64,000 nucleotides of DNA from a virus. The notes below the pieces were generated by a model. That model saw nothing but the letters and a program-made list of their open reading frames with translations. It was not told the DNA's origin and did not search any database. Below, one piece after another: positions 7,909 to 23,418 of this stretch; the first letter of the stretch is position 1; each line of letters begins with the position of its first letter. Made by a program: the position numbers and the translations under genes. The DNA lies in the IMG/VR virus record IMGVR_UViG_3300042566_000510, positions 13,492 to 77,491 of that record. One strand, given 5' to 3'.

Positions 7909-9870
7909 ATGGGACTCGGACTCGGAGCATTAGGCGGTTTAGCCAAGGGCATTGCCCAAGGTACGCAGATGGCGTGGGATCAGCAAGAGCGCGAGCGCCA
8001 AGCCGCACGCCAAGAGAAGATCGACGCCATGACGGAGGAGAAGTTTGGCCGCGAGAAAAAAGAGTGGGCTGACAAAGACGCCATCGAAAGGGCTACCACC
8101 GACATCATGAGCGCCGGCACGCAGACTCCAGGGTTTGCGTCAGAGTCCTCTTCTGGCAAGTACTTCAATAGAGATCAAAATGAAGCGCAGCAGCTCGCTG
8201 ACCTCAACGCCGCAGCGGACGAAATGGCCGCGGGACCAGCCGGCGACCAAGGCGCATCGCAGCCGCTACAGGCATCTGTCAAGCAGGCAGCATCCGTTGC
8301 TGGCCTTGACGGTAAGTCAAAGCTATTCACCGGGCTGAATGCCGCAACAGAAGCCAAGCAGTATGTCGACAACGGCGACTTCGGAAGCTACGCAAAATAC
8401 ACGACTCTGCGCGACAAGCTGGCCACCATGCCGGGTGGTCAGGAGTATGCCGACAAGTTCTTCCAGCGCATGAAGCTAATGAAGGAGGAAGGCCTTGACA
8501 AGGCTCTCTCATATCTTGACGCCGATCGACCAGAGGACGCCATGCGCGCCGCTCAGTCCGTTGGTCAGTACCGCCCTCCCGAAGGATCAAAGCTGGTATC
8601 AAGGCAAGGCAAGCATTGGCTCACAGGAGCAGATGACAAAGTCTGGAGCCTTGTTGACAAGGATGGGAAAGTCATCCAAGACGACGTTCGCCGGTCAATT
8701 GAAGGTGGCCTGCTCGGGTTCAAGGATCGCGCGACTATCGCTGCCACACTAAAGAAGTCCGAAGACTCCGCAGAGGCTCGCCGCTACGCAGCAGAAATGG
8801 CATTCCAGCGCGGGCTCATGCTTGGCGGAGGGGGCGGAAGGTCTGGAGGGTCTGGCGGATCCGGCGGATCTGGAAAGCAACCATCCGACCCGGCAATGAG
8901 CCTGCTTGAAGATGCGTACAAAGCTGACGCACCAGGCGGCGGGAAGCACACCGGAGCTCAGCTTATTGAGGGTACAGCGATGCTGGACGTCATCCCTAAG
9001 ACCTTGCCGAATGGTACGACATTGTCTGACAAGATGCGCGCCCAGATTGCCTACGACGCATCTGTAAACCCAAACTCCACCACTACGCAAATCAATCCAA
9101 CAACAGGACAGATTGAGCGCGTGTATAAGATGGCGCCACGCCCTAATGCCGCTGGCAACATGATCCCAGCATCCATTCCTGTTGGGGTTTGGAGCGTAGA
9201 TCAGGCGGTATCAGCGGCCTCTACGGATGATGATGCAAGCAAAAAGGTGCGAGCCACGCTAGGCGCGGAGGTTCAAAAGATCACATCCGGATTGCCGCGG
9301 AATGAGCAGCAAAACGTCATTGACTCTGCATTCAGTGAGCGCGCCCGCAGGGAATACATGGGACGCTACCAAGGCGAGATTGCGCGTAGCGTTCAGGATC
9401 TCGACAAGCCGCAAGAGTGGAAGGATGCGTACGTCAAGCAAAACGTCCAAGCTCGTGAGCGATTGATTGACTTGCAGCGCGAGTTTGGCAAGAAGCCAGA
9501 ATGGGTCGAAAAACAAGAGAGCCAAGCGCGCGTGAAGGCTGGCCTCGCCGCCACCGCCAATAGCAACTACACAGAAAGCCAAGCCGCATCTGTCAAGAAG
9601 TGGTTCGGCGATGAAAAGCCAATCATTCCGAGCATCACAAATGCAGCGAAAGGTTTGTACAACAGTGCGGCCGAATCTTTCAAGCAAAGCAATGTGCGGA
9701 GTGAAGACTACATACGGAAAACCGTCGCAGACATCAATAAGACAGGAAGAATTTGGCCGGCTGACGCGTCAGCAATAGCAGCTACATTGAAGAGCAAGCC
9801 GGAGCTGAAGTCCCTCTTTACGCCTGACCAGCTAGAAGCAATTCAAGCCCGCACTGGCGCCCAGTTCTAA
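7909..9870 (+). CDS. Internal virion/DNA transfer protein
   Basis: N-terminal GLGALGGLAKGIAQG followed by coiled coil; Cys-free; position in module. Confidence 0.65.
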   Translation: MGLGLGALGGLAKGIAQGTQMAWDQQERERQAARQEKIDAMTEEKFGREKKEWADKDAIERATTDIMSAGTQTPGFASESSSGKYFNRDQNEAQQLADLNAAADEMAAGPAGDQGASQPLQASVKQAASVAGLDGKSKLFTGLNAATEAKQYVDNGDFGSYAKYTTLRDKLATMPGGQEYADKFFQRMKLMKEEGLDKALSYLDADRPEDAMRAAQSVGQYRPPEGSKLVSRQGKHWLTGADDKVWSLVDKDGKVIQDDVRRSIEGGLLGFKDRATIAATLKKSEDSAEARRYAAEMAFQRGLMLGGGGGRSGGSGGSGGSGKQPSDPAMSLLEDAYKADAPGGGKHTGAQLIEGTAMLDVIPKTLPNGTTLSDKMRAQIAYDASVNPNSTTTQINPTTGQIERVYKMAPRPNAAGNMIPASIPVGVWSVDQAVSAASTDDDASKKVRATLGAEVQKITSGLPRNEQQNVIDSAFSERARREYMGRYQGEIARSVQDLDKPQEWKDAYVKQNVQARERLIDLQREFGKKPEWVEKQESQARVKAGLAATANSNYTESQAASVKKWFGDEKPIIPSITNAAKGLYNSAAESFKQSNVRSEDYIRKTVADINKTGRIWPADASAIAATLKSKPELKSLFTPDQLEAIQARTGAQF

Positions 9871-9903: not shown

Positions 9904-12900
9904 ATGGAATTCAAACCATCAATCTCACCAGAGCAGTTTGACATGATGCAGGGCGGTGGCCAGCCCACCTCGTCCGCCTCTCCGTCTCAGAAGTATGCCG
10001 GAGGATTTGACGCTGCTGCGTCATTCACCCTTGGTGAGGAAGGTGGCTACGTCAAAGATGACGCCGGAGCCGGGGAAACAAACTTTGGCATCAACAAGCG
10101 GGCAAACCCAGACGTTGATATCAAGAGCTTGACCGAGTCTGGTGCGCGCGATTTATACAAGACGCGCTACTGGAATCCGATTGGCGGAGATGAGCTTGCA
10201 AAGCGCAATCCCATTCTTGCAACCATCGCTTTCGACACGGCCATCAACATGGGCCCGACGACCGCCAAGAATTTTTTACGCGCCGCGAATGGAGATCCGG
10301 CAAAGGTTCTCGAGATGCGCGCTGAGCGCTATCGCGATCTGCTTGCAGCCGATCCCAAGAAGTTCGGCAAATACGCAGATGGCTGGCAATCTCGGATGGA
10401 CAAGCTGTATGAGCTTGCAGGGACTCAGCAGCCCGCAGCGCAGCCAACGAATGACTTCAGCGGGGAAGGCTCAACTGCTGGCGGCATCGATTGGAACGCC
10501 AAAGAAAAGGGCTTCGTTGATCGCGCGTCCGAGGGGTTTAAGCGCGGCTTTGATCAGTCCATTGGCTTAGGCCAAGCGGCTGCAGCATTGGTGAACCGCA
10601 CAGTCACTGGTGAAAAGTACAACGAGTTTCAGGATGAAATGTTGCAGGCGGCAGGCAAGCGCATGCAGCCAGAGGGCAGCGCACCTACGCCTCAATTCAG
10701 CGACGTCGTTTCCGGCGGCGCGAACTTTAAAGATTGGCTTGCCGACTCGGTAGGCTACCTTGGATACCAGGCCGTTGAGATGGCGGCCTCGTTCGGTATC
10801 GGTGGACTCATCGGTAAAAACATTGCCAAAGGCGCCGTCAAAGAGGTCGCCGAGGGCATGATTGAGAAAGAGGTCGCTCGACTCGCCGCCACCGACGCAG
10901 CCAAAACTCTCAGCAAGGATGAGATCGGAGCGCTCGCGGTCAAGAACGTCGCCGGCGAGATTGCTGGCAGCATGGCCACATTTGCAAACAATCTGCGCCA
11001 AACGTCTGGCGGCGTCTACATGGAGGCGCTGGACAATGAGGCGAAGACCGGCAAGCCAGCCGACTTAACCAATGCATGGGTCGGATCAATTGGATCAGCA
11101 CTGGTTGACACCGCTGCTGACATTGCTGGCGCTCGAGGCATCTTAGGTAAAGCTGGTAGCGGAAACGCCACGTTTTTGGGCCGCGCTGCAACGCAAGTTC
11201 CGCGTCAGATGGGGATTCAAGGCGGTACGGAGTACCTGCAAAGCAACATCGAAAACGCGGCAGCAGGCACAGACCCGTTCACCGAGAAGGCTCAGATTCA
11301 GGCGTTGAACGAGGGCGCTGTAGGCGCACTTGGTGGCGTCTTTCCAGGTCTTGGGGAGGCTCGCGTTCAACGCGCTACAAACCCTTTGCAGTCAGTCATC
11401 GACCATGCCGAAAAGCCTGGCAGCGTGCTCTCGCGTGCTGTGGTTTCTACCGGCGTTACCGATCAGGCTGCAGCAGCGGCCGCATCAGAAGCCCTGCCTC
11501 CCGCGGCTGACGACCTCGTGCAACGCGTGCGCGACGTCGAAGCCGGCATGCGCAATGGCCCCGTGCTCGACAACTTGCGTGACGACGGCGTTGACACCCG
11601 TGAGCTCCTCAATGACATGCAGCTTGCCCGTCGCACGGACGCGCCACGCGTTGCCCGTGAGGCTGCCCTCGAGCGCATCGAGACGGCGATCCACTTTGCA
11701 AACCAGGACGCGCAACCGCGTGCGCCGCTGGACTCGATCCAGAGCAACCCCGCTTTCGACTTCACTCAACAAGAGCAGGTTGAGCCGCAACAAATCCCTG
11801 ACTTGTCAGCAGTATCGACCGCGCTGCGTGACCCGAATCTGCGCAACACCATTTCTGACGAAGATCGCGACCAACTGCTGTATTTGTACAACATCGCCGG
11901 AAATAGCAAGGGTGATACCGTCGTGCGCACAAATGCCGCACGTCAAGCGCTCGAGATCGTCGGCCGCTATCAAACCCCTGTCGGCACGCCAGGCAGCACA
12001 ACGCCCGCATTGGAGCAGGCTGCGCAAGCGGGTGCTGCTATTGCTACGCCTGCTGAGCAACAAACTGTTGCCGCAGAACCCAAAGAGTTGGACTTCCTGC
12101 AGGCCGTGCCCGAGCCAAAGGTCGGCATCCCTGCCGGCGAAGGTCCGGCCTTTCTGCGTAAGCGCGCTGCTGTAGTCAAGCAACTGGTCGACAACGGCTT
12201 TGAGACCGTCCAGCGCGACAGCAAAGACTTCTACCTCACCAACACCAAGACCGGCCAAAAGTTCAAGCTCGACGGCTCAGCCGATGCTCAGCTCGCTCGC
12301 AAGGCGATCAAGGATCGAGTCGACGCGCTCGCTGCAACCAACGAGAAGAATCCGTCTCAAGCCAAGATCAACGCCAACAACTACAAGAAGTCCGACGTCA
12401 TCGACTTGAACGGCATGAAGATCAAGATCGAGAACGAGCGTGGCGACATCCGCCGCGGCGTCGGTCCTGATGGAACGCCGTGGGAAACAAAGATGGCTCA
12501 CCACTACGGTGAGTTCCAGGGAACGATCGGCGCAGACGGCGACAAGCTCGACGTCTTTATTGGCCAACGCCCTGACAGCAACAAGGTGTACGTGGTCGAC
12601 CAGGTCAATCAGGACGGCTCATTCGACGAGCACAAGGTCATGATGGGCTTCACCTCGAAAGAGGATGCCAGCTCCGGCTATCTGGCCAACTACGAAAAGG
12701 GCTGGACCGGCCTTGGCGCCATCACCGAAATGAGCGTCGACGAGTTCAAGACCTGGGCCAAGTCACGCGCTGCCAAGAAGCCCGCCTCCAGCGTGCTCGA
12801 GAACGCCGCGGCCGCAGGCCAAGATCAATTCACCGAAGAAGAGAAGGCCGAGGAGAAGAGCGGCAAGTTCTTCTACGTCAATGACGGCGAGAAGCAGCAC

Positions 12901-15900
12901 AAGCTCAAGATCATCAAGCCCGGCGAGCTTTCCAAGAAGCCAAGCGCCGAGCGCCCCGGCAATCGTCGCCCTCTGACGCAGGCTGATGCCGCACTCATCG
13001 AGAAGGTCGCTGCACTTCTGGGCAAGAACGTCGTGTTCTTTGAGGCTCAAGAGGGCCGCCTCTCTGACGGCTTCGTACGCCCCGGCCAACCCGACACTAT
13101 CTACGTTGCCACCGAGACCACGGTCAATCCGCTGGCAATCTTTGGTCACGAGTTCTTTCACACCCTGCGCGAGACCAATCCCAAAGCCTGGGACGCCGTC
13201 GCTGCCGTGGTGGGCACCAAGGTCACCGCCGCCAAGCGCTTCCGCAAGGACCGCTACGGCAAGAAGGTTGCCGACGCAAAGGGCGACGCCGCACTCAGCA
13301 CTGAGGTTGGTGGCGAGCTCGAGGAGCTGGTGTCTGACCTGGGCGGCAACCTCCTAAAGGACTCCAAGTTCTGGAAAGAAGTCTTTGCCAAGATCGAAGC
13401 TGACAACGGCGCCGAAGCCAAAGGCATCATCGCCAAGCTGTCGGCCGCCATCCAGAGCGCGATCACTCGCATCGTCAAGGCGATCAACCAGCCAGGCTAC
13501 CGCGCTGACAGCTTCGTCAAGGATCTCGATCAAGTACGCGCTGCGTTCGTGGACGCAATGGCTGCGCACCTCAAGAATGGCGACGTCGAAAAGATGGCCG
13601 CCACCGCGAACCAGAAGATCAAGAAGTCCGAAGATCGCGACGGCCTCACTGTCGAGGGCTATCACTTCAGCAAGGCGCCTCGCACCGTCTTGACCACCGC
13701 CATGTTTGGCACCGGCCTCAAGGGCAGCGCTCGCGAAGACATCAAGAACAACCCAGACCAGCGCCTGCGCCAGCGCCTGTCTTTCTACTTCGACAAAGGC
13801 ACCGGCATCAATCCGGAAGCTGGCGTTGGCAGCATTGCCCACAAGGCAACTCTCACCAACATCTACGACGCCGATGCAGATCCGTTGCGCCTGCGTACGG
13901 GCGATGCACGCGCGTTCGAGTCCAAGGTTCTGGATAACGGCTACAGCGGCTACCTCCAGCGCATGCAAGGCACGCAGTCCGGCCAGGTCATCTTGCTGGG
14001 CAAGCAGACCGTCAAGCCCGAGATTCTCGGCGCTGTTGGCAAGATCACCAACGCCGAAGTGGTGCCAGCTCCCAAGCAGCGCGCCGCTGATGTTGGCGAC
14101 CAGATCATGGCCAACAAAGATCTGCCAGCGGGCGCACTGACGCCGACGCAATGGTCAGAAGCGCTGATGCAGAAGATGCCCGAAGTGGCAGCACAGCTGA
14201 TGGACATCGGCGCCTTCGAGGGCAACGACTCCATGTACAAGGATGAGCTTGTCGCCAAGGCGCGCCAGCTCTCCAGCCAGATCAAGAAGTCTGCCGATCG
14301 CGCACGCGACGAGTACGCCGAAGTCGAAGCCAAATACAAAGGCACCGACGAATGGCTGAAGGCGCCCAACGGCGAGAGCACCAACCTCAGCGAGCGCCAG
14401 TGGATCCAAGTCCGCACGCCTTCATTCAAGAAGTGGTTCGGCGACTGGGAGAAGTTTGCCGGCATGCAAGGCGGCGTTTGGAATGACGCCAAGAACGAAG
14501 TCTCCAAGGCTGTCGACAAGAACGGTGAGCCGCTGGTCGTCTACCACGGCACCAACAAAGGCGGCTTCTCTGAGTTCAACACGCCCGGCGGAGAGAAGCG
14601 CGGAGATCTTGGGATTTTTACCACGCCTAACCTGGAGATGGCGCAGACCTACTACAGCCGTCGAGGCGGAGAAATCGATCTCTCCGACAAGGACCAAGGC
14701 GATCTCGAGGATATCGGCTACCAATTCAAGCCAGGCTTTATCGTCAAAGGAAGCGATGTTGGCTTCTTTGATAGCAAAGAACAATTGCTCGAAGAGGTTG
14801 AACTCGATCCCGGCGAAGAGATTGTCGAGGCATGGGATGTCACCGATCCAAACGGCTACAACGTAGACGGGCCGCGTGATCACTCGTACTACTTTGAATC
14901 GCTTGCCGACGCCGTTGGCACAGTAAACCTAAATATGGCGCAAGAGTCGACGAAAGAGTCTGGCTATTACGCCCTGTTCGCCAACATCCGCAATCCATCC
15001 GAGAGCGACTTTGAGGGCGCCAACTGGGAAGGTTCACGCGAAGGTCAGTACAACGTCATCAATCAAGACGGCGAGCAGGTCTACGACAAAGACGGTAAAG
15101 GTGTCTTCAACTCCTATGACGAAGCCCAGGAGGTGCAGTTCGCCAACCCCGGAACTACGGTCGAAGGCGCGGCCGATCACTACGAAACCACCGATGACGT
15201 GGTTTTGAATGCAAAGCGCTACGGCAACGACGGCGCTTACATGCAGAACGTCGTGGACGCAGGCCCAGGTGGCGGCGCGTACATCGACGAGCCATCCGAT
15301 ATCTTCGTTGCGCTCGATCCATCTCAACTCAAGTCTGCCAACTACAACAGCGGCGAGTTCAGCGTTGACAGCAGCGATTTGCGCTTCTCGAAAGACCGCC
15401 TCACGCGCGAAGATCCGTTCGAGATGTCGACGCGCATCCCAACAGCCAAAGGCAAAGTGGTCGAGGACCATGCCGGAGATCTCCTGATCTCCGACTTTGC
15501 CGCCGGTCAGAAGCAGGAGAAGTGGGTCAACTCGGTGGCCAACCTGGTCGCGCAGTACCCCAACTATCGCGAAGCAGACAGCGCCAAGACGCCAGCCAAG
15601 AAGCTCGAGCGCCTTGTCCGCCATATGGTTGAGAACCTCGTCTGGTTGCACAACCAAGTGCCGGCCGAGACTCGCCAACGCAGCAAGCTGTGGTACGACG
15701 GCGCCAACCGAATTGCCGAGCGCATGTCTCGCAAGTACGAGCTGACGCCAGCGCAATCGTCCGGCATCCTCGCCGTGCTAAGCCCGCAAAAAGACTGGTT
15801 CATGAACGTGAGCCTGGGCGAGCGCGTTGCCTCGATCATGGCTGAGCGCCAGAACTTCCAATGGTCCAAGGACATGGATGCCACGGCCAACCGCATCTAT

Positions 15901-17649
15901 GGTGCGGCCAAGTACCAGGAAGACGTTGACGCCATCCGCGGCAAGTCCCTATCCGACCTGGACGGCAAAGCATACCTGCAAGCCATGTGGGTGCGCACGT
16001 ACGACCAAGCTCACAACTCGAGCTCGTTCAACATCGTGTCACCCGAAGGTGATTCGCTGGCGATCGCCAAGGCCAAGACCGGCAACCCGGTCAAGGTGGC
16101 ATGGGGCGGCAACAGCACCATTGCCAAGGCCATCTCGATCTTCAACGACGGCTCTGCAAGCAACATCAGCGAGCAGTTGGGCACCAAGCACAAGGTGCGC
16201 AACTTCTTCAACAACATCCTGGTGCCAAAGAGCAAGAACGGCCACGTCACGATCGACACGCACGCCGTCGCTGCTGCGCTGCTGCGACCTCTGTCCGGCA
16301 ACTCGCTCGAGGTGATGCAAAACTTTGGCGGCACCTCGAACGCCATCAGTGGTCTACAGGGCACCTATGCTCTGTACGAAGAGGCCTACCGCCGCGCGGC
16401 CGAAGAGCTTGGCCTTCTGCCTCGCGAGCTGCAATCAATCACCTGGGAGGCTGTCCGCGGCCTGTATACCCCGGGCTTTAAGTCACAGTCGAAAAATGTT
16501 GACGCTGTTGATAAAATATGGAATCAGTACAAGAAAGGACGACTGAGCTATGACGGAGCAAAAGAATGGGCACTCGAAACTGCGGGAGGAATTGAGCCTC
16601 CTAGCTGGCTCGGACGCGACCCTGGCGCATATGTTGAAGACGAATCGTCCATTGAGCCTGGAGACGTATCTGGAGATGGAGTATCCGGAAGGGATTCCGA
16701 AGACGCTTTCATCCGAGCAGTGGGCGATGATTCCGGAGCCGCTGAAGAGAGCATCCGACAATCAGGAGACCGAGAAGGACGGGATGAAAGCGGAGGCATT
16801 GCGCCGCTTGCAGGTGCGCCAACTGTTCAAGGCGCGTCCGGGCCAGACCCGCGGCTCGTCCAAGTAGCAAACAAGTACGCCAGCGACAACGGCATCACAC
16901 TCCGCCGCCAGGCAGAGTACGTTGAGGTTGACCCCGAGCGCGCAGCTCGGATCGCGGCCGCCTACGAGGCTATGCCGCACGCCCCGCAAGACCGCAAGGT
17001 CAAAGCAGCATTTGCCAACCTGATCCGCCAGACGCGCGCTCAGTACGACGCGCTGGTTGATGCAGGCTACAAGTTCACGTTCTTCGACTCGAAGAGCGAC
17101 CCCTACGGCGGCAACCCATGGAACGCCATGCGTGACCTGCGCGAGAACCAGCGCATGGCCGTGTACGGCACCTATGACGGCTACGGCACCGAAGGTGTGA
17201 CCAAGAGCAAGGTCGACGACAACCCAATGCTGGCCGACACCGGCCTTGAGTGGGAAGACCAGAACGGCAAGCTTCATCCAGTGCTGGCCAACGACCTGTT
17301 CCGTGCCGTGCATGATGCTTTCGGTCACGGCCTTGAGGGCACCGGCTTCCGCGCTCGCGGAGAAGAGAATGCGTGGCAGGCTCATATCCGTATGTTCACC
17401 GGCTCTGCCAAAGCTGCGATCACCACAGAAACGCGTGGCCAAAACAGCTGGCTGAACTACGGCCCGTACGGTGAAAAGAACCGCGTCGCCAAAGTTGAAG
17501 ACACAGTCTTCGCCGAACAGAAGACTGGCCTGATGCCTGAGTGGACTTGGTCTGAAGGGTTGGCTGAAGACATGCCGACCAAAGACGAGCCCACTTACAA
17601 TCAGCGCGTCAACGCCCTCAAAGATTTGATCTCCTGCCTGAAGAAATAA
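9904..17649 (+). CDS. Giant polyvalent internal virion protein: GH108 muramidase, inorganic pyrophosphatase-like, zincin peptidase, two ADP-ribosyltransferase-like, DUF7178/HhH-glycosylase-like and HDxxGH domains
   Basis: EEGGYV..GETNFGI (GH108); HYGEFQGTIGADGDKLDVF..FDEHKVMMGF; GHEFFH; YHFS..GYSGY; FKKWFGDW..PLVVYHGT..QLKS; WYDGA..LAVLSPQ..VTIDTHA..LQSITW; FRAVHDAFGH..GEENAW. Confidence 0.8.
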   Translation: MEFKPSISPEQFDMMQGGGQPTSSASPSQKYAGGFDAAASFTLGEEGGYVKDDAGAGETNFGINKRANPDVDIKSLTESGARDLYKTRYWNPIGGDELAKRNPILATIAFDTAINMGPTTAKNFLRAANGDPAKVLEMRAERYRDLLAADPKKFGKYADGWQSRMDKLYELAGTQQPAAQPTNDFSGEGSTAGGIDWNAKEKGFVDRASEGFKRGFDQSIGLGQAAAALVNRTVTGEKYNEFQDEMLQAAGKRMQPEGSAPTPQFSDVVSGGANFKDWLADSVGYLGYQAVEMAASFGIGGLIGKNIAKGAVKEVAEGMIEKEVARLAATDAAKTLSKDEIGALAVKNVAGEIAGSMATFANNLRQTSGGVYMEALDNEAKTGKPADLTNAWVGSIGSALVDTAADIAGARGILGKAGSGNATFLGRAATQVPRQMGIQGGTEYLQSNIENAAAGTDPFTEKAQIQALNEGAVGALGGVFPGLGEARVQRATNPLQSVIDHAEKPGSVLSRAVVSTGVTDQAAAAAASEALPPAADDLVQRVRDVEAGMRNGPVLDNLRDDGVDTRELLNDMQLARRTDAPRVAREAALERIETAIHFANQDAQPRAPLDSIQSNPAFDFTQQEQVEPQQIPDLSAVSTALRDPNLRNTISDEDRDQLLYLYNIAGNSKGDTVVRTNAARQALEIVGRYQTPVGTPGSTTPALEQAAQAGAAIATPAEQQTVAAEPKELDFLQAVPEPKVGIPAGEGPAFLRKRAAVVKQLVDNGFETVQRDSKDFYLTNTKTGQKFKLDGSADAQLARKAIKDRVDALAATNEKNPSQAKINANNYKKSDVIDLNGMKIKIENERGDIRRGVGPDGTPWETKMAHHYGEFQGTIGADGDKLDVFIGQRPDSNKVYVVDQVNQDGSFDEHKVMMGFTSKEDASSGYLANYEKGWTGLGAITEMSVDEFKTWAKSRAAKKPASSVLENAAAAGQDQFTEEEKAEEKSGKFFYVNDGEKQHKLKIIKPGELSKKPSAERPGNRRPLTQADAALIEKVAALLGKNVVFFEAQEGRLSDGFVRPGQPDTIYVATETTVNPLAIFGHEFFHTLRETNPKAWDAVAAVVGTKVTAAKRFRKDRYGKKVADAKGDAALSTEVGGELEELVSDLGGNLLKDSKFWKEVFAKIEADNGAEAKGIIAKLSAAIQSAITRIVKAINQPGYRADSFVKDLDQVRAAFVDAMAAHLKNGDVEKMAATANQKIKKSEDRDGLTVEGYHFSKAPRTVLTTAMFGTGLKGSAREDIKNNPDQRLRQRLSFYFDKGTGINPEAGVGSIAHKATLTNIYDADADPLRLRTGDARAFESKVLDNGYSGYLQRMQGTQSGQVILLGKQTVKPEILGAVGKITNAEVVPAPKQRAADVGDQIMANKDLPAGALTPTQWSEALMQKMPEVAAQLMDIGAFEGNDSMYKDELVAKARQLSSQIKKSADRARDEYAEVEAKYKGTDEWLKAPNGESTNLSERQWIQVRTPSFKKWFGDWEKFAGMQGGVWNDAKNEVSKAVDKNGEPLVVYHGTNKGGFSEFNTPGGEKRGDLGIFTTPNLEMAQTYYSRRGGEIDLSDKDQGDLEDIGYQFKPGFIVKGSDVGFFDSKEQLLEEVELDPGEEIVEAWDVTDPNGYNVDGPRDHSYYFESLADAVGTVNLNMAQESTKESGYYALFANIRNPSESDFEGANWEGSREGQYNVINQDGEQVYDKDGKGVFNSYDEAQEVQFANPGTTVEGAADHYETTDDVVLNAKRYGNDGAYMQNVVDAGPGGGAYIDEPSDIFVALDPSQLKSANYNSGEFSVDSSDLRFSKDRLTREDPFEMSTRIPTAKGKVVEDHAGDLLISDFAAGQKQEKWVNSVANLVAQYPNYREADSAKTPAKKLERLVRHMVENLVWLHNQVPAETRQRSKLWYDGANRIAERMSRKYELTPAQSSGILAVLSPQKDWFMNVSLGERVASIMAERQNFQWSKDMDATANRIYGAAKYQEDVDAIRGKSLSDLDGKAYLQAMWVRTYDQAHNSSSFNIVSPEGDSLAIAKAKTGNPVKVAWGGNSTIAKAISIFNDGSASNISEQLGTKHKVRNFFNNILVPKSKNGHVTIDTHAVAAALLRPLSGNSLEVMQNFGGTSNAISGLQGTYALYEEAYRRAAEELGLLPRELQSITWEAVRGLYTPGFKSQSKNVDAVDKIWNQYKKGRLSYDGAKEWALETAGGIEPPSWLGRDPGAYVEDESSIEPGDVSGDGVSGRDSEDAFIRAVGDDSGAAEESIRQSGDREGRDESGGIAPLAGAPTVQGASGPDPRLVQVANKYASDNGITLRRQAEYVEVDPERAARIAAAYEAMPHAPQDRKVKAAFANLIRQTRAQYDALVDAGYKFTFFDSKSDPYGGNPWNAMRDLRENQRMAVYGTYDGYGTEGVTKSKVDDNPMLADTGLEWEDQNGKLHPVLANDLFRAVHDAFGHGLEGTGFRARGEENAWQAHIRMFTGSAKAAITTETRGQNSWLNYGPYGEKNRVAKVEDTVFAEQKTGLMPEWTWSEGLAEDMPTKDEPTYNQRVNALKDLISCLKK
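16489..16517 (+). promoter_or_regulatory. Internal sigma70-like promoter inside the giant gene
   Basis: TCGAAA-17 bp-TAAAAT with extended -10 TG, in a local AT-rich patch; AAGGA RBS at 16535-16539. Confidence 0.5.
16550..16867 (+). CDS. Nested +1-frame gene inside the giant protein gene (candidate immunity/partner protein)
   Basis: Own promoter and RBS; protein-like sequence MLKTNRPLSLETYLEMEYPEGIPKTLSSEQWAMIPEPL; main frame becomes D/G/S/R low-complexity over much of this stretch. Confidence 0.6.
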   Translation: MTEQKNGHSKLREELSLLAGSDATLAHMLKTNRPLSLETYLEMEYPEGIPKTLSSEQWAMIPEPLKRASDNQETEKDGMKAEALRRLQVRQLFKARPGQTRGSSK

Positions 17650-17655
17650 AGAACC

Positions 17656-20600
17656 ATGGCCCAATTCTCAAACTGCCTCCAGATCGTCAACAACATGCCT
17701 GAGCGCGACCAGGAGGCTCTGCTGAGTCGACTGGATCAGCTCCAAGCTCAAGGCCTGTCAGCCAAGGAGGCGCAGCTTCAGGCGGCCATTGACGTGCTGG
17801 CGCAGGTTGAGCGCGAGGGTCAAGTTCGCAAAAGCGCAGACCGCACCTGGAGCGGGGACGGGTATCGAGCCCTGAACTACAACCCGCCAAAGAATGCAAC
17901 GGTTGCCGATGTAGTCCGATACGAAAGCGAAGAGCTTGGCAATGCAGACATTGGAGAGATGGCCGATGAGTCCGCCAATCAGCTCGGCATTGACCTTTCT
18001 GCGATCCCAGCGTCCGATGCGATCTGGGTGACGCACACCGTAGAGCAGGCAATGCAGTACGGCGAGCGCTCAGACATTGATAAATACCCCGTCAACGGCT
18101 GGCTGATCCTGGCCGACCTTGGCGACGAGGGCGCGCTACTCCTAAATCCCAAGCATGCTCAAGGCATCCTCAAGTCCGTCGACCGCCCTCAGTTCTACAG
18201 CCAGCTTCAGCGCTCAATTGAGCAAGTGCCCGAGCGCCTGGCAACCATGGCTGCGCCAGCATGGAAGCAGTGGCTCACGGCCAACGCCTCTAAGCTCGGC
18301 ATCAAGGCCGACGAGCTCGAGTGGTCCGGCATCAAGGACTACCTGGACCTGCAGGGCAAGGCCAAGCTCAATAAGGCTGATCTCTCCTCCTACCTCGACG
18401 ACAGTGGCGTCAAGATCTCCGAGGTACAGCTTGACGATGCTGATGCCAAGCGTTCGCGAGCAGACAAGGAGGCTGCAGCAAACAAACTTACGCGAGCCAC
18501 CTTGGAGCTCCGCGAAGCTACGCCAAACATTCGTCAGCTGGATGGCGCCAACCTCACCGGATGGGCCGAAGATGCCTATGCCGGCGATGAATTTGCACAG
18601 CGGAAGATCCAAGCACTTAGCCTGGATGACAACGCCATGGCTGCAGTGCGTGAATATGGCCGCGTCGCAGCCGAATTTAACGAGGTTCATAACACTCGCA
18701 ATTCACCGGCAACCAAGTACGGCCAGTACACCCTGCCAGGTGGTGAGAACTACCGCGAGGTGCTGATCACGCTGCCGGTAACGCCAAAAGATGGCGCCAC
18801 CATTCAGCAGGCGTCATCTGGTTTCTGGCGTGTCACATTCAAAAATGGCGACACGGCAATGTTCAAGACGGAGTCGGAGGCTCGCGCAGCGGCTGGCGGA
18901 AGCGATGCGTACACATCAAGTCACTGGGACCAGAAGAACATCCTTGCCCACATCCGCGTCAACGACCGAGTCGCACAAGAGCCTGGCTTCATTGTGCGCA
19001 ACACCCGCTCCGGCAACCGCAGCGAAGTGTTTGCAACCCGCGAGCAAGCTGAGGACTACCAAGCCAAGATGCCTGCGTCCTTGAAGACGGAAATCGTTGA
19101 GCAGCCTCGCGAAGTAAAAGTTCTCTTCGTGGAAGAAGTTCAATCGGACTGGGGCCAAGAAGGTAAGAAGAAAGGGTTCGCCGGCCAGAATGGCGCGCCT
19201 TTGTCTGAGCAGGAATACAAGCGCGCTGCCGAGCTGCAAAAGCGTGACCGCCTTGGCGGCGAGCCCTTGAGCGCCACTGAGCGCGCAGAGTTTGACGCGC
19301 TGATGGCCCGTCACACGCGAGCTCATGAGGGACTGATGGTTCCCAACGCCCCCTTCGTCACCAAGACCGAAGGCTGGCTCAACCTCGCGCTCAAGCGCAT
19401 CGCCATGATGGCCGTCGAGGGTGGCTACGACAAGGTGGCTTTCGTCAACGGCGAGCAGTCGGCTGACCGCTACAGCCTGGAAAAGCAAGTCGATGAGCTT
19501 TCCTACGAGCCAACAGCCAAGGGCTACTACATCAACGTGATGGCCAGCGGTCGCAACATCAAGAGTGGCGACTTCACGAAGAGCGAGCTCGAGGACATTG
19601 TCGGCAAAGAGATTGTCCAAAAGATGGACGCTCGCGAAGGCAAGGTCGAGGGCACGCCAGGGGCTCCGGACTACGAAGATTTGAAGGATATTCGCACTCT
19701 GAGTGGCGACGGTCTCAAAGTCGGCGGTGAAGGCATGAAGACCTTCTACGACAAGCTCGTGCCACAGGCTCTCAACAAGCTGCTGCCTAAGCTGGGCGGT
19801 GAGAAGCTGGGCGCCGTCGAGATCGACGTGCAAGGAACCGGCCTGCAGACTCGGTACGAGTACCAAGGCCCAGAGCTCAAGCGATCCGAGATCGATGCAA
19901 TTGCAAGGTCAGGCGATTTCTCTGTATCGATTGAGCGTCAGTTGCGCGAAATCGGTAGCTTTGTGGAAGTCGGAGTGCCCATGGCGGAGGCGGTGCAAAA
20001 GTATGGCTCCATCTCTGCGGCTGAAGCGCTCGGCGGCAAGCTGGTGCCAATGAAGAATGCGATGTCCGCGCAACCAGGCTTCGACGTCACAGACAAGATG
20101 CGCGAGACCGTGTCTGCCGGTGTGCCGCTTTTCAGCCGTGATCGCCAGACAGAGACGCCTGAGTTTAAGAAGTGGTTTGGCGACAGTAAGGTGGTGGATG
20201 CTGAGGGTAAGCCGCTGGTGGTTTATCACGGGACTGGCGGCGACTTCGATTCATTCGATGCCGCTCGCTCGGGCCAGAACTACGCTCGACGTGGCGGAGA
20301 AAAAGGCTTCTTCTTCACGAACAGGCCAATTCCCGCTGGCGTGTACGCCGAACAGGCGAGCGGAGCCTTCTTTGGTGACGAAGAGAACCCTCGCTTCGGC
20401 GACGGTACGGCCAACATCATGCCGGTGTACCTGTCGCTGCAGAATCCCTACGTCCGCAAAGCGACCGGCTCTCCTGACAAATGGTTCGATTCAAACCACA
20501 GCGCCTTGCTGGCTGCCGCCGAAAAAGCTGGCGCTGACGGCATCATTGTTAATGGCGGCAAAGGATTTGAGATCCGCAGCGTTTACATCGCATTCAGCCC

Positions 20601-23418
20601 CACCCAAATTAAATCCGCCACAGGCAACAACGGCCAGTTCGACGCGACCAACCCAGACATCCGCAAGTCTGCCGACCGCCCTTGGTTCGACGACCTGAGT
20701 AAGCTTAAGGTCACAACCAACTACCAGCTCGGCGACTTGCTGAAGACCAGCAAGAAGCTGTCTTGGTGGGATCGCACCATCGGCACACAGTACAACCTGG
20801 CGCAGAAGCACCCGCAGTTCAAGCGCGTGTTCGACGCTGTGCAGCGCTTCATCAACGACGTGTCGCTCTACGCCACCCGTGCTGCCGACCTGGCGCCAAC
20901 CTGGCTGCCAAAACTGGATGGCATTTCGGACATCAACCCGTTCAGCAAGAATTTCAAGCGCCCAGTTTCCGCGGAGGACGTCAAGGCTTTGCGTGACCCC
21001 ATCTTTGGCGGCACGCTCAAGTACACCCGCGACGAAAACGGAGAGCTGATCGAGTCGGATGATGTGTCCACTGCAGGCGTGGTGTTCACCAACGAAGAGC
21101 TGCGCACAAACTTCGGCTTGAACGATCGCCAGATCGGCCTGTACCGCGAGTTCCGCAAGTCGGTCAACAAGAGCATTTCAGACTTGGCCGTATCGGATTC
21201 GCTGCGCTACCTCGGTAAAGATGGCGAAGGCGTGCGCCAGCGAGCGCTTGACGCCGCCAATCTGGATGACGCACTAAATGCCATGGTTGCTCACCTTGAT
21301 CAGTTGATCGCTCAGCAGCCGGAGCGCGCAGAGGTACTTGAAGATAGTAAGCGCGTCATCAAAGAGAAGGCGGGCCAGGCCATCGGCGCAATGTCACGCG
21401 GTTACGCACCTTTGTCTCGCTTTGGTGAGTACACGGTCTACGCTACCGGCGAAGGGCTCGAGGAACCCATCTTCTTCATGTTCGAGAATGAGCGCGATGC
21501 AAACGTGCGTGCTCGCGAATTACAACGCGAATTCCCAGACGCCAACATTGAGCAAGGAACGATGAGCCAAGAGAGCTACAAGCTCTTTAGCGGCGTGACG
21601 CCAGAATCGCTTGCCCTGTTTGGCGAGGCTCTTGGGCTCGAGGAGTCCGGCGCCGACACCAAGTCGCAGGCATTCCAGATGATGCTGAAGATGGCCAAGG
21701 GAAACCGGTCCGCCATGAAGCGCATGATTGAGCGTAAGGGTATTGAGGGCTTCAGCGAAGATGCTGGTCGCGTGCTGGCTGGCTTCGTGTACAGCAATGC
21801 GCGTCAGATCTCGACCAACCTGCATGCCGGAGAAATCGCACGCAGTGTCCAAGAAATCGATCAGCGAAATGGCGACGTTAAGGACCAAGCTGTCCGTTTG
21901 ATGGAATACGTGCAGAACCCACGCGAAGAGGCTCAAGCCTTACGCGGCCTGATGTTTACGCAGTTCATCGGTGGCTCTATCGCTTCGGCCATAGTCAACA
22001 TGACTCAGCCGTTCACCATGACCCTGCCTTACCTGAGTCAGTTCGACGGCGCCACCGGTGCCGCCTCTCGCATGGCCGACGCAGTGAAGCTGGCCTCTCG
22101 CGGCATTCGCAATGACGACGACCTCAAGGCTGCACTCAAGCGCGGAGAGGATCTCGGGATTGTTAGTCCGCAGGAAGTGCATCAGCTCATGGCTCAGGCT
22201 CAAGGCAAGGGCAAGCTGCAAACCGGCGACGGCACCAAGATGGGCGACGCTGCGGCCAAGGTGAACAACGGCCTAGCCAAGCTTGGTCTGGCGTGGGGCA
22301 AGGTGTTCTCGGCTGCCGAACAGTTCAACCGTCGCGTGACCTTCATCGCTGCCTACAAGCTGGCTCGCGACCAAGGCATGGCCGATCCAATGGCTTTCGC
22401 TGAGAAGGCCATCGCTGAGACGCAAGGCGTGTACAACAAAGGCAACAAGCCAAACTGGGCTCGCGGCGCAGTGGGCGGCACCTTGTTCACGTTCAAGCAG
22501 TATTCAATCGGCTACCTCGAGTTCTTGCGCCGCATGTGGGGTAACGGACCAGAGGGCAAGAAGGCCGTCGGCCTCGCGCTTGGCGTGTTGTTCCTCATGT
22601 CTGGCTTGGGCGGCATGCCTGGCTCCGACGATCTGGATGACGTCATCGACGGCTTCATGCAGCGCGTGCTCGGCCGTAGCTTTGACAGCAAGCAAGCGAA
22701 GAAAGAGTTCTTCGCCAGCATCCTGGGTCAATCCGGCGCTGAGTTTGTGATGAGCGGACTGTCTGGCTTGCCAGGCATGCCAATCGACTTCTCCGGTCGC
22801 ACGGGTCTAGGCAACATAGCTCCAGGCACTGGCATCTTCACCAAGAAGCGCGACTACGCCCAGGACTACAAAGAGGTGCTTGGCCCTGTCGGCACGCTGG
22901 CAACAAATGCAGGATCTTTCCTGGCAAACTTTGCGGCCGGCGAGTTCGGCAAGGCTGCGGAATCGGTTGCGCCGGTTGCTGCGCAGAACGTCATCAAGGC
23001 AATCGACATGGCGCAGATGGGCTTCTATCGCGATGCTAAGGGCCGCAAGGTCATTGACACAACGCTGAGCGAAGCCATCCTCAAGGGTGCAGGCTTCCAG
23101 CCACGTTCGGTCAGTCAGATCCAGCAAGCCACCGGCGAGCAGCAGGGTCTCATCGCGCAGAACCGTTTGGCATGGCAGGAGATCCGTGATCTCGCTGTTG
23201 CCGGTCGCGTCGAGAAGGATGAGGCCAAGCTTGCAGAGGCGCGCCGTCGCTTTGGCCAGTGGAATCGCAACAACCCTGACAGCCCAATCCGCTGGAATCA
23301 AGAGTCCATCAACAGCGGCGTCAAAGAAGCCAACAAGCCAAAGGCTGAGCGCATCGCTGATGCTGCGCCCAAGCAGATCCGCGGCACAGTCAAGCGAGAA
23401 CTTGAGAAGGCCGACTGA
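17656..23418 (+). CDS. Second polyvalent internal virion protein: ART-like cassettes, EEVQSD domain, C-terminal PLxRFG domain
   Basis: GYRA..IWVT..QYG; YREVLITLP..FVEEVQSDW..PNAPF; FKKWFGDSKVVDAEGKPLVVYHGT..QIKSATGNNG; GYAPLSRFG. Confidence 0.8.
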   Translation: MAQFSNCLQIVNNMPERDQEALLSRLDQLQAQGLSAKEAQLQAAIDVLAQVEREGQVRKSADRTWSGDGYRALNYNPPKNATVADVVRYESEELGNADIGEMADESANQLGIDLSAIPASDAIWVTHTVEQAMQYGERSDIDKYPVNGWLILADLGDEGALLLNPKHAQGILKSVDRPQFYSQLQRSIEQVPERLATMAAPAWKQWLTANASKLGIKADELEWSGIKDYLDLQGKAKLNKADLSSYLDDSGVKISEVQLDDADAKRSRADKEAAANKLTRATLELREATPNIRQLDGANLTGWAEDAYAGDEFAQRKIQALSLDDNAMAAVREYGRVAAEFNEVHNTRNSPATKYGQYTLPGGENYREVLITLPVTPKDGATIQQASSGFWRVTFKNGDTAMFKTESEARAAAGGSDAYTSSHWDQKNILAHIRVNDRVAQEPGFIVRNTRSGNRSEVFATREQAEDYQAKMPASLKTEIVEQPREVKVLFVEEVQSDWGQEGKKKGFAGQNGAPLSEQEYKRAAELQKRDRLGGEPLSATERAEFDALMARHTRAHEGLMVPNAPFVTKTEGWLNLALKRIAMMAVEGGYDKVAFVNGEQSADRYSLEKQVDELSYEPTAKGYYINVMASGRNIKSGDFTKSELEDIVGKEIVQKMDAREGKVEGTPGAPDYEDLKDIRTLSGDGLKVGGEGMKTFYDKLVPQALNKLLPKLGGEKLGAVEIDVQGTGLQTRYEYQGPELKRSEIDAIARSGDFSVSIERQLREIGSFVEVGVPMAEAVQKYGSISAAEALGGKLVPMKNAMSAQPGFDVTDKMRETVSAGVPLFSRDRQTETPEFKKWFGDSKVVDAEGKPLVVYHGTGGDFDSFDAARSGQNYARRGGEKGFFFTNRPIPAGVYAEQASGAFFGDEENPRFGDGTANIMPVYLSLQNPYVRKATGSPDKWFDSNHSALLAAAEKAGADGIIVNGGKGFEIRSVYIAFSPTQIKSATGNNGQFDATNPDIRKSADRPWFDDLSKLKVTTNYQLGDLLKTSKKLSWWDRTIGTQYNLAQKHPQFKRVFDAVQRFINDVSLYATRAADLAPTWLPKLDGISDINPFSKNFKRPVSAEDVKALRDPIFGGTLKYTRDENGELIESDDVSTAGVVFTNEELRTNFGLNDRQIGLYREFRKSVNKSISDLAVSDSLRYLGKDGEGVRQRALDAANLDDALNAMVAHLDQLIAQQPERAEVLEDSKRVIKEKAGQAIGAMSRGYAPLSRFGEYTVYATGEGLEEPIFFMFENERDANVRARELQREFPDANIEQGTMSQESYKLFSGVTPESLALFGEALGLEESGADTKSQAFQMMLKMAKGNRSAMKRMIERKGIEGFSEDAGRVLAGFVYSNARQISTNLHAGEIARSVQEIDQRNGDVKDQAVRLMEYVQNPREEAQALRGLMFTQFIGGSIASAIVNMTQPFTMTLPYLSQFDGATGAASRMADAVKLASRGIRNDDDLKAALKRGEDLGIVSPQEVHQLMAQAQGKGKLQTGDGTKMGDAAAKVNNGLAKLGLAWGKVFSAAEQFNRRVTFIAAYKLARDQGMADPMAFAEKAIAETQGVYNKGNKPNWARGAVGGTLFTFKQYSIGYLEFLRRMWGNGPEGKKAVGLALGVLFLMSGLGGMPGSDDLDDVIDGFMQRVLGRSFDSKQAKKEFFASILGQSGAEFVMSGLSGLPGMPIDFSGRTGLGNIAPGTGIFTKKRDYAQDYKEVLGPVGTLATNAGSFLANFAAGEFGKAAESVAPVAAQNVIKAIDMAQMGFYRDAKGRKVIDTTLSEAILKGAGFQPRSVSQIQQATGEQQGLIAQNRLAWQEIRDLAVAGRVEKDEAKLAEARRRFGQWNRNNPDSPIRWNQESINSGVKEANKPKAERIADAAPKQIRGTVKRELEKAD

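Follow-up and report, generated by a model that had tools for sequence, protein, structure and literature searches.

Candidate processing sites in a giant phage effector polyprotein: a Ser-x-Asp-Arg peptide that recurs at the joints between enzyme cassettes

The window analysed here is a stretch of 64,000 nucleotides (nt), positions 13492-77491 of a 77,491-bp IMG/VR phage genome (IMGVR_UViG_3300042566_000510) with 127-bp direct terminal repeats. Two genes in it encode giant proteins, P0001 and P0002, in which a short peptide of the form Ser-x-Asp-Arg recurs at the joints between unrelated modules. This study concerns that junction peptide and its relation to a zincin-like domain with the sequence HEFFH in the first protein. 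The features of the two genes are given below in window coordinates; aa stands for amino acids, pLDDT for the predicted local distance difference test score of AlphaFold2 (AF2) models, and HSP for a high-scoring segment pair in alignments with relatives.

9904..17649, plus strand: giant protein 1 (P0001), 2581 aa, with a carrier, four motif-bracketed cassettes and a conserved C-terminal tail
P0001 residues 41-117: GH108 lysozyme (Pfam)
P0001 residues 820-953: InPase (Pfam)
12856..13617, plus strand: zincin-like domain, P0001 about 985-1238, with HEFFH at nt 13147-13161
13618..13638, plus strand: junction 1, IKKSEDR, zincin to cassette E; AF2 pLDDT below 50
13639..14280, plus strand: cassette E, about 24 kDa, no known family
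14281..14301, plus strand: junction 2, IKKSADR
14302..15378, plus strand: cassette F, ART-PolyVal with an insert, about 41 kDa (Pfam, from P0001 residue 1538)
15379..15399, plus strand: junction 3, LRFSKDR; 30 HSP ends in bin 1830
15400..16752, plus strand: cassette G with DUF7178, about 50 kDa (Pfam, P0001 residues 2071-2185)
16753..16773, plus strand: junction 4, IRQSGDR
16774..17646, plus strand: cassette H and the conserved tail ...YNQRVNALKDLISCLKK, about 32 kDa
17656..23418, plus strand: giant protein 2 (P0002), 1920 aa, with a 59-aa conserved leader, three cassettes and a PLxRFG (tail-700) module
17824..17844, plus strand: junction 5, VRKSADR, between the leader and cassette J; 40 HSP ends fall in bin 60
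17845-18186: cassette J (with junction 6), no Pfam match
18166..18186, plus strand: junction 6, ILKSVDR, cassette J to cassette K; DNA homology to relatives starts at these codons
18187..20124, plus strand: cassette K, about 72 kDa, no Pfam match in P0002; holds the internal QSADR
19456-19470, plus strand: internal QSADR inside cassette K, not a junction
20125..20145, plus strand: junction 7, PLFSRDR, between cassette K and the ART cassette; F and D invariant, S and R conserved to at least 90%
20146..20658, plus strand: cassette L, ART-PolyVal, about 19 kDa (Pfam, P0002 residues 848-995)
20659..20679, plus strand: junction 8, IRKSADR, between the ART cassette and the PLxRFG module; 194 HSP ends fall in bins 1000-1019; coil, pLDDT 43-46
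20680..23415, plus strand: C-terminal structural module with the PLxRFG domain, about 100 kDa; 44-45% identity to the C-termini of F116 p60 and H66 gp60

The N-terminal carrier of P0001 (residues 1-1245) consisted of the GH108 domain, a long helical region, InPase and the zincin, with no junction motif within it. From the zincin onward the modules of protein 1 were arranged in the order zincin, E, ART, DUF7178 cassette and H, and those of protein 2 in the order leader, J, K, ART and PLxRFG. With GH108, InPase, two ART-PolyVal domains, DUF7178 and PLxRFG in chains of 2581 and 1920 aa, the pair belongs among the polyvalent proteins, for which GH108, InPase, ART-PolyVal and DUF7178 count as signature domains (Iyer et al. 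2017, PMC5512222). Pfam gave no match for cassettes E, H and J, and a sequence search of the PDB with cassettes E, G, H and K returned nothing.

An earlier note on this DNA had reported eight similar heptads at domain junctions and one further QSADR away from any junction. All nine were present and in frame; four of the junction heptads lay exactly at the coordinates reported and the other four positions had been given about 3 nt high. The first heptad had been placed directly after the HEFFH domain, and IKKSEDR at 13618-13638 does abut the zincin end at 13617. The modules joined by the eight copies were unrelated, comprising the zincin, two ART-PolyVal domains, DUF7178, PLxRFG, the leader and unknown folds. 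When the residues of the two giant proteins were shuffled 20,000 times, Ser-x-Asp-Arg (S.DR), observed 9 times, had a mean of 1.04 and a maximum of 7, and the heptad [ILVMF]x[KRFQY]SxDR, observed 7 times, had an expectation of 0.054 and a maximum of 2; the eighth junction, PLFSRDR, falls outside the heptad pattern. Elsewhere in the 77.5-kb genome the heptad occurred in no other convincing gene. The sole other S.DR in a long open reading frame (ORF) was PFSKDR in an ORF of 319 aa, where it lacked the junction context, and none was present in head-module proteins or other identified structural genes.

The ninth copy, NGEQSADRY at P0002 residue 602, lacked the hydrophobic-basic context and was never a homology breakpoint; it lay within a conserved fold, with 0 alignment block ends at that residue, in keeping with its original description. 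Across relatives NGEQSADRY was kept within the cassette K fold rather than at a joint. Possibly it has a function of its own in the 72-kDa cassette, where the blocks EEVQSDWGQ and GGEGMKTFYD were also conserved.

Relatives were gathered through P0002 residues 1-1030 (the best 120 of 1716 matches were analysed), through a zincin search (56 proteins) and from a representative library (130 more distant proteins), making about 300 in all; some of the relatives are prophage-like, for instance one in Stutzerimonas (P0073). S.DR occurred 301 times in 121 proteins, versus 76 expected, with 4-11 copies per close relative and a consensus context of about [DN]-I-[RT]-K-S-[AVR]-D-R. The more general pattern [ILVMF]x[KRFQY][ST]xxR was enriched about 4 times, with 697 occurrences in 177 proteins versus 161 after shuffling. 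The residues at +1 and +2 from the Ser differed by clade, Asp at +2 being specific to the clade of this phage; in distant lineages Ser and Arg were fixed, +2 was Glu, Ala, Pro, Gln or Val, and the residue preceding Ser was Arg or Phe. One distant locus had an F-S-x-x-R variant (6 observed versus 0.4 expected). Of two cultured phages, H66 had no S-x-D-R in gp60, and F116 had one related joint in p60, DILFSRSGLR, where the ART part meets the PLxRFG part. This joint (TPDILFSRSGLR) is the only junction-like peptide of F116 p60 (L006 8429-13378), which also has two HExxH sequences, HELQH and HEMIH, before the ART module.

The Ser codons at the eight junctions were TCC, TCT, TCG, TCA and AGC, so that both Ser codon families were represented, and within the genome the 21-nt junction core had a mean identity of 55%, with longest shared exact runs of 5-13 nt. 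Selection therefore acts on the protein and not on the DNA, as the earlier note had proposed from the partial conservation of the DNA, and an RNA or DNA element or a microhomology is unlikely to be the conserved entity. Ribosome skipping of the 2A type, an RNA element and dibasic sites of the OmpT type were considered and rejected, because the DNA was not conserved and many copies lacked a dibasic pair.

Homology to relatives broke off at the motif. In P0002, 596 of the 885 internal BLAST block ends (67%) lay within 12 aa of the four junction motifs, versus 5% expected, so that the coincidence of cassette boundaries with the motif that had been predicted for homologues was found; in P0001 the corresponding values were 20% and 3.9%. 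Depending on the phage, the leader ...EREGQxRK-SADR preceded cassette J, an ART module or other modules, and cassette J itself was found at array positions 2, 3, 10 or 11 among the relatives, with the motif bracketing every occurrence. At the nucleotide level, the window had no similarity to three relatives (L007, L080 and L010) before the I-L-K-S codons and near-complete similarity from there on. In a fused relative of 4095 aa (P0130), the zincin protein was joined to cassette K exactly at the motif. Single-linkage clustering of motif-cut segments merged the ART and other cassettes and was used qualitatively. Judged from these alignments, exchange between phages clearly takes place at the motif.

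The closest relative, L005 (IMGVR_UViG_3300035703_000055), was 65% identical from the zincin to cassette H, over about 1600 aa. At its positions 14780-15170 it has an extra cassette of ~130 aa between cassette H and the tail, set off by DIRKSPAR, which on its sequence is a clean single-cassette gain at a junction.

Such exchange could mean that the motif is mainly a recombination junction, either a coding microhomology or a linker copied with each insertion, and has no biochemical role. The variable cassette content with its breakpoints at the motif would be explained, as would the 39 identical nucleotides that the window and L080 share across one junction, and recombinational variability has been raised for some polyvalent loci (Iyer et al., PMC5512222). 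However, the 55% identity, the 5-13 nt runs and the two Ser codon families at the junctions within the genome are not what this explanation predicts. Moreover, Ser and Arg persist where the linker and the flanking domains have diverged to 30-40% identity, which argues for selection on the peptide, and the genome has no silent or orphan cassettes. We regard a purely recombinational role as improbable. A cassette store within the genome was sought by tblastn with 307 related proteins and rejected, since a single marginal HSP lay outside the two giant genes. The earlier suggestion of microhomology for cassette exchange was thus weakly supported, in that cassettes are exchanged between phages at the motif; a dedicated system was not supported, given the weak DNA microhomology and the lack of spare cassettes. 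Cassette gains and losses would end at the motif through selection, because breaks within a common functional linker leave chimaeras viable.

The position of the peptide was strongly polar with respect to the zincin. In 51 zincin-bearing proteins, the density of the general motif was 0.15 per 1000 aa on the N-terminal side of the zincin and 2.6 on the C-terminal side; in 188 proteins the values were 0.23 upstream and 1.73 downstream, compared with a density of 0.36 after shuffling. The downstream density was the higher in 135 of 147 untied proteins, a test whose p-value is inflated by relatedness. The joints of the carrier (lysozyme, helical region, InPase, zincin) lacked the peptide, which is therefore no all-purpose linker between domains. 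Its first copy was located 160-168 residues past GHExxH, directly behind the last zincin helix, and was kept as [KR][KR]-[ST]-x-x-R even in zincins of about 40% identity. A comparison of 80 metagenome loci, 37 of which had at least 9 kb upstream of cassette K and were used, gave 0.72 motifs per 1000 aa for the 16 zincin-positive loci and 0.26 for the 21 without a match (Mann-Whitney p = 0.009), a difference that is confounded by kinship and by zincins that may sit outside the 10-kb flanks.

The HEFFH sequence corresponds to H1082, E1083 and H1086 of P0001. These three residues and the downstream E1141 and D1145 were invariant in 182 of the 182 aligned homologues, among which there were no naturally inactive zincins, and from this invariance of the catalytic residues the zincin looks active. 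The AF2 model, built from a 36-sequence alignment (mean pLDDT 76), had a helix, three strands, the HExxH helix and further helices, an order that matches the zincin-like core described in PMC5512222. The family comprised 539 representative clusters at E <= 0.001 in a library of 1.84 billion proteins, nearly all members lying within proteins of 1000-5000 aa. The domain had no match in Pfam at E up to 1 and no matching NCBIfam model. Its structural neighbours in BFVD were pieces of phage polyvalent proteins and one IrrE-like fragment, a search of the ESM Atlas gave leads only to LPD23/LPD1, and a related-loci search with the zincin returned a single locus. The C-terminal half of the domain is a long helical hairpin that dominated fold searches; in VIA-align this terminal hairpin alone was matched, with Z at most 7.8.

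No prohead protease was found by PHROGs or Pfam among the genes from portal to tail, and the head proteins lacked the motif. Processing by a prohead protease was dropped on these grounds, and the zincin is consequently the only protease candidate seen in the genome. The peptide might nevertheless be a processing site read by another enzyme, either a host envelope or cytoplasmic protease acting after ejection or an unrecognised phage protease, with the zincin serving as an effector against host proteins. Iyer et al. (PMC5512222) also allowed for metallopeptidases (MPTases) as effectors, the AF2 models left the linker outside the zincin cleft, and some zincin-negative loci still had a few motifs. 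Several observations make this version unlikely: 1) no further protease was found in the head module or neighbouring genes, 2) the other proteins of the phage lack the motif, 3) the first motif is fixed at the zincin C-terminus over a wide divergence and 4) the +2 residue varies by phage clade, which is less expected if a conserved host enzyme reads the site.

In the AF2 models, the chain around junctions 1 and 8 had pLDDT below 50 and formed no secondary structure, and junction 7 bordered a low-confidence stretch, just ahead of the helix with which the ART cassette begins. A conserved motif in a linker needs a common reader, which is not necessarily a protease, and the peptide could instead be part of an uncut connector that is recognised by a binding partner, as a docking or packaging signal for the capsid interior, portal or ejection channel, or modified at its Ser or Arg by an ADP-ribosyltransferase (ART) or a kinase. 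It is consistent with this alternative that giant proteins of the N4 type are reportedly ejected uncut and that ART modules adjoin motifs containing Arg and Ser. However, the carrier half of protein 1, which would also need packaging, has no copy of the peptide, no partner could be identified, and the placement at every joint between independent enzymes suits release better than docking. An uncut connector is accordingly rather unlikely, less so than either a foreign protease or a purely recombinational role.

A single linker peptide at all joints beside a protease domain is the classical signature of polyprotein processing. The reading we prefer is that the junction peptides are processing sites of a virion-borne effector polyprotein, to which we assign a probability of about 0.5, a figure that applies to processing in general. 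Self-processing by the zincin of the same chain is favoured because one selected peptide lies in flexible linkers at every enzyme joint and its first copy directly follows an intact protease domain. The cleavage site for the cis zincin that had been suggested earlier agreed with all of the indirect tests: unrelated folds share an end peptide, the linkers are predicted to be flexible, selection acts at the protein level and the motif lies C-terminal to an invariant zincin. The part played by the zincin, like the cleavage itself, the scissile bond and the timing, inside the head or after ejection, is inferred.

According to this model, the two genes would encode one effector polyprotein split into two chains, with a motif-free carrier followed by unrelated enzyme cassettes and with the PLxRFG structural module last. 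A flexible linker at each cassette joint would bear the recognition peptide, consisting of a hydrophobic residue, Arg, Lys or Leu, then Lys, Phe or Gln, and Ser-x-Asp-Arg. The zincin would cut at its own C-terminus first and then at the remaining junctions of both proteins, turning full-length chains of 280 and 210 kDa into products of about 133, 24, 41, 50 and 32 kDa from protein 1 and of about 7, 12, 72, 19 and 100 kDa from protein 2. If the cut fell just before the invariant Ser, which is conjecture, the products would have uniform Ser N-termini. The common selected linker peptide would keep recombinants between phages functional when they are broken there.

Several points weigh against self-processing. 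No cleavage product has been observed and the phage is uncultured. Serine at the centre of the motif would be an atypical specificity determinant for a zincin. AF2 placed no junction peptide in the zincin cleft, and the domain was not linked to the Pfam family MPTase-PolyVal, nor did it have a sequence match in the PDB or a Foldseek match there below E 0.07. Kinship inflates both the association among the 37 loci and the sign test, and some zincin-positive loci (L024, L033) had few recognisable motifs. The polarity could also reflect the mere C-terminal appending of cassettes to a conserved carrier. Finally, N4 vRNAP, ArdC and TraC1, which have related domains, are reported to be packaged or transferred uncut (PMC5512222).

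A broader form of the self-processing model, which we put forward tentatively and as somewhat less probable than processing of the two proteins in question, is that phage polyvalent proteins are self-processing polyproteins with a lineage-specific junction code read by a hub zincin. The code might be [ILVMF]-x-[KRF]-Ser-x-Asp-Arg here and Ser-x-Glu/Ala/Pro-Arg or Phe-Ser-x-x-Arg elsewhere. Protease and code would perhaps co-evolve, and a common code could make cassettes exchangeable between phages.

Comparable arrangements exist in other systems. The MARTX toxins of Vibrio and its relatives carry a strain-variable array of effectors in one chain, an internal protease cuts the unstructured linkers between effectors after delivery, and the effector repertoires change by recombination. 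The MARTX protease is an inositol-hexakisphosphate-activated cysteine protease that cuts after Leu, and the toxins are secreted by bacteria, whereas here the protease would be a zincin, the peptide has the form Ser-x-x-Arg, a phage particle would deliver the effectors and the target would be a bacterium. In T4, where gp21 acts on the internal proteins and Alt, and with the prohead proteases of phiKZ and SPN3US, injected enzymes that include an ADP-ribosyltransferase are cut at a short consensus peptide. Those sites are common to capsid and scaffold proteins and processing takes place during or after packaging; here, in contrast, no prohead protease was found and no head protein had the motif. 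In polymorphic toxins, a short peptide (VENN in CdiA, PxxxxDPxGL in Rhs) divides a constant carrier from an exchangeable module, with one C-terminal module, junction homology at the DNA level and orphan cassettes nearby. The phage proteins differ in having many modules in series, weak DNA homology at the junctions and no orphan cassettes.

The PLxRFG proteins F116 p59/p60 and H66 gp60 occupy the same genome position and their C-terminal module is 44-45% identical, yet the multi-cassette array with a repeated motif was not seen in these two cultured relatives. The GenBank record of H66 gp60 annotates its presence in the virion as verified by mass spectrometry, and by analogy with it P0001 and P0002 would be packaged and delivered with the DNA.

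The published polyvalent proteins (PMC5512222) are likewise giant multi-enzyme virion proteins encoded among late genes, and they too combine ART-PolyVal, InPase and lysozyme with an HExxH domain. Self-processing of polyvalent proteins by an MPTase was proposed, on other grounds, by Iyer, Burroughs, Anand, de Souza and Aravind in 2017 (PMC5512222), so both the architecture and the idea of self-processing are already published. The paper is silent on any cleavage site, linker or junction motif, whereas here a defined peptide is found at every cassette joint C-terminal to the zincin, and the zincin family has no matching Pfam model. The literature search found no description of a junction motif or of mapped cleavage for proteins of this kind.

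Among unexplored phage proteins, the polyvalent proteins rank with the largest and most common, and whether and where they are cut has been an open question since 2017. A junction peptide beside an intact zincin gives the Iyer/Aravind proposal exact positions that can be tested. The peptide also provides a rule for dividing thousands of giant metagenomic proteins into modules, several of which have no known family. If the code holds, it would account for the reshuffling of sets of anti-host effectors between phages, and if self-processing by a junction code is general, it would be the counterpart, in bacterial viruses, of MARTX toxins and RNA-virus polyproteins.

The surroundings of the two genes are those of a late, virion structural region. 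An SU10-type portal, a scaffold-sized ORF and a 327-aa major capsid protein lie 5' of them, and an internal virion protein, a tail fibre and virion structural proteins lie on their flanks. An integrase is encoded 3' of the giant genes, and the large terminase is close to the end of the genome. The 653-aa ORF immediately 5' of the giant genes (7909-9870) matched nothing in PHROGs or Pfam. The C-terminal 912 residues of P0002 were 44-45% identical to giant virion proteins of the Pseudomonas phages F116, H66, LKA5 and phiC725A and matched NCBIfam NF032893 (PLxRFG domain) with E = 4e-175; because of this identity and the PLxRFG match, the phage appears to be an uncultured relative of the F116-like temperate podophages. 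By megablast, cultured phages gave no nucleotide-level match to the genome, and cassette K had two weak matches only among them, so that there is no directly applicable proteomic literature.

Two terminal segments of the giant proteins were conserved independently of the cassettes. The last ~18 residues of P0001 (YNQRVNALKDLISCLKK, window 17593-17646) were kept at the extreme C-terminus of 25 zincin-bearing relatives, whichever cassette preceded them. The 59-aa leader of P0002, MAxFSNCLQIVN...AQVEREG (17656-17832), was as conserved as this tail and was set off by the junction motif. The fused 4095-aa relative had neither segment. Tail and leader each have one conserved Cys, and from their sequences they look like a matched docking pair that could join the two chains.

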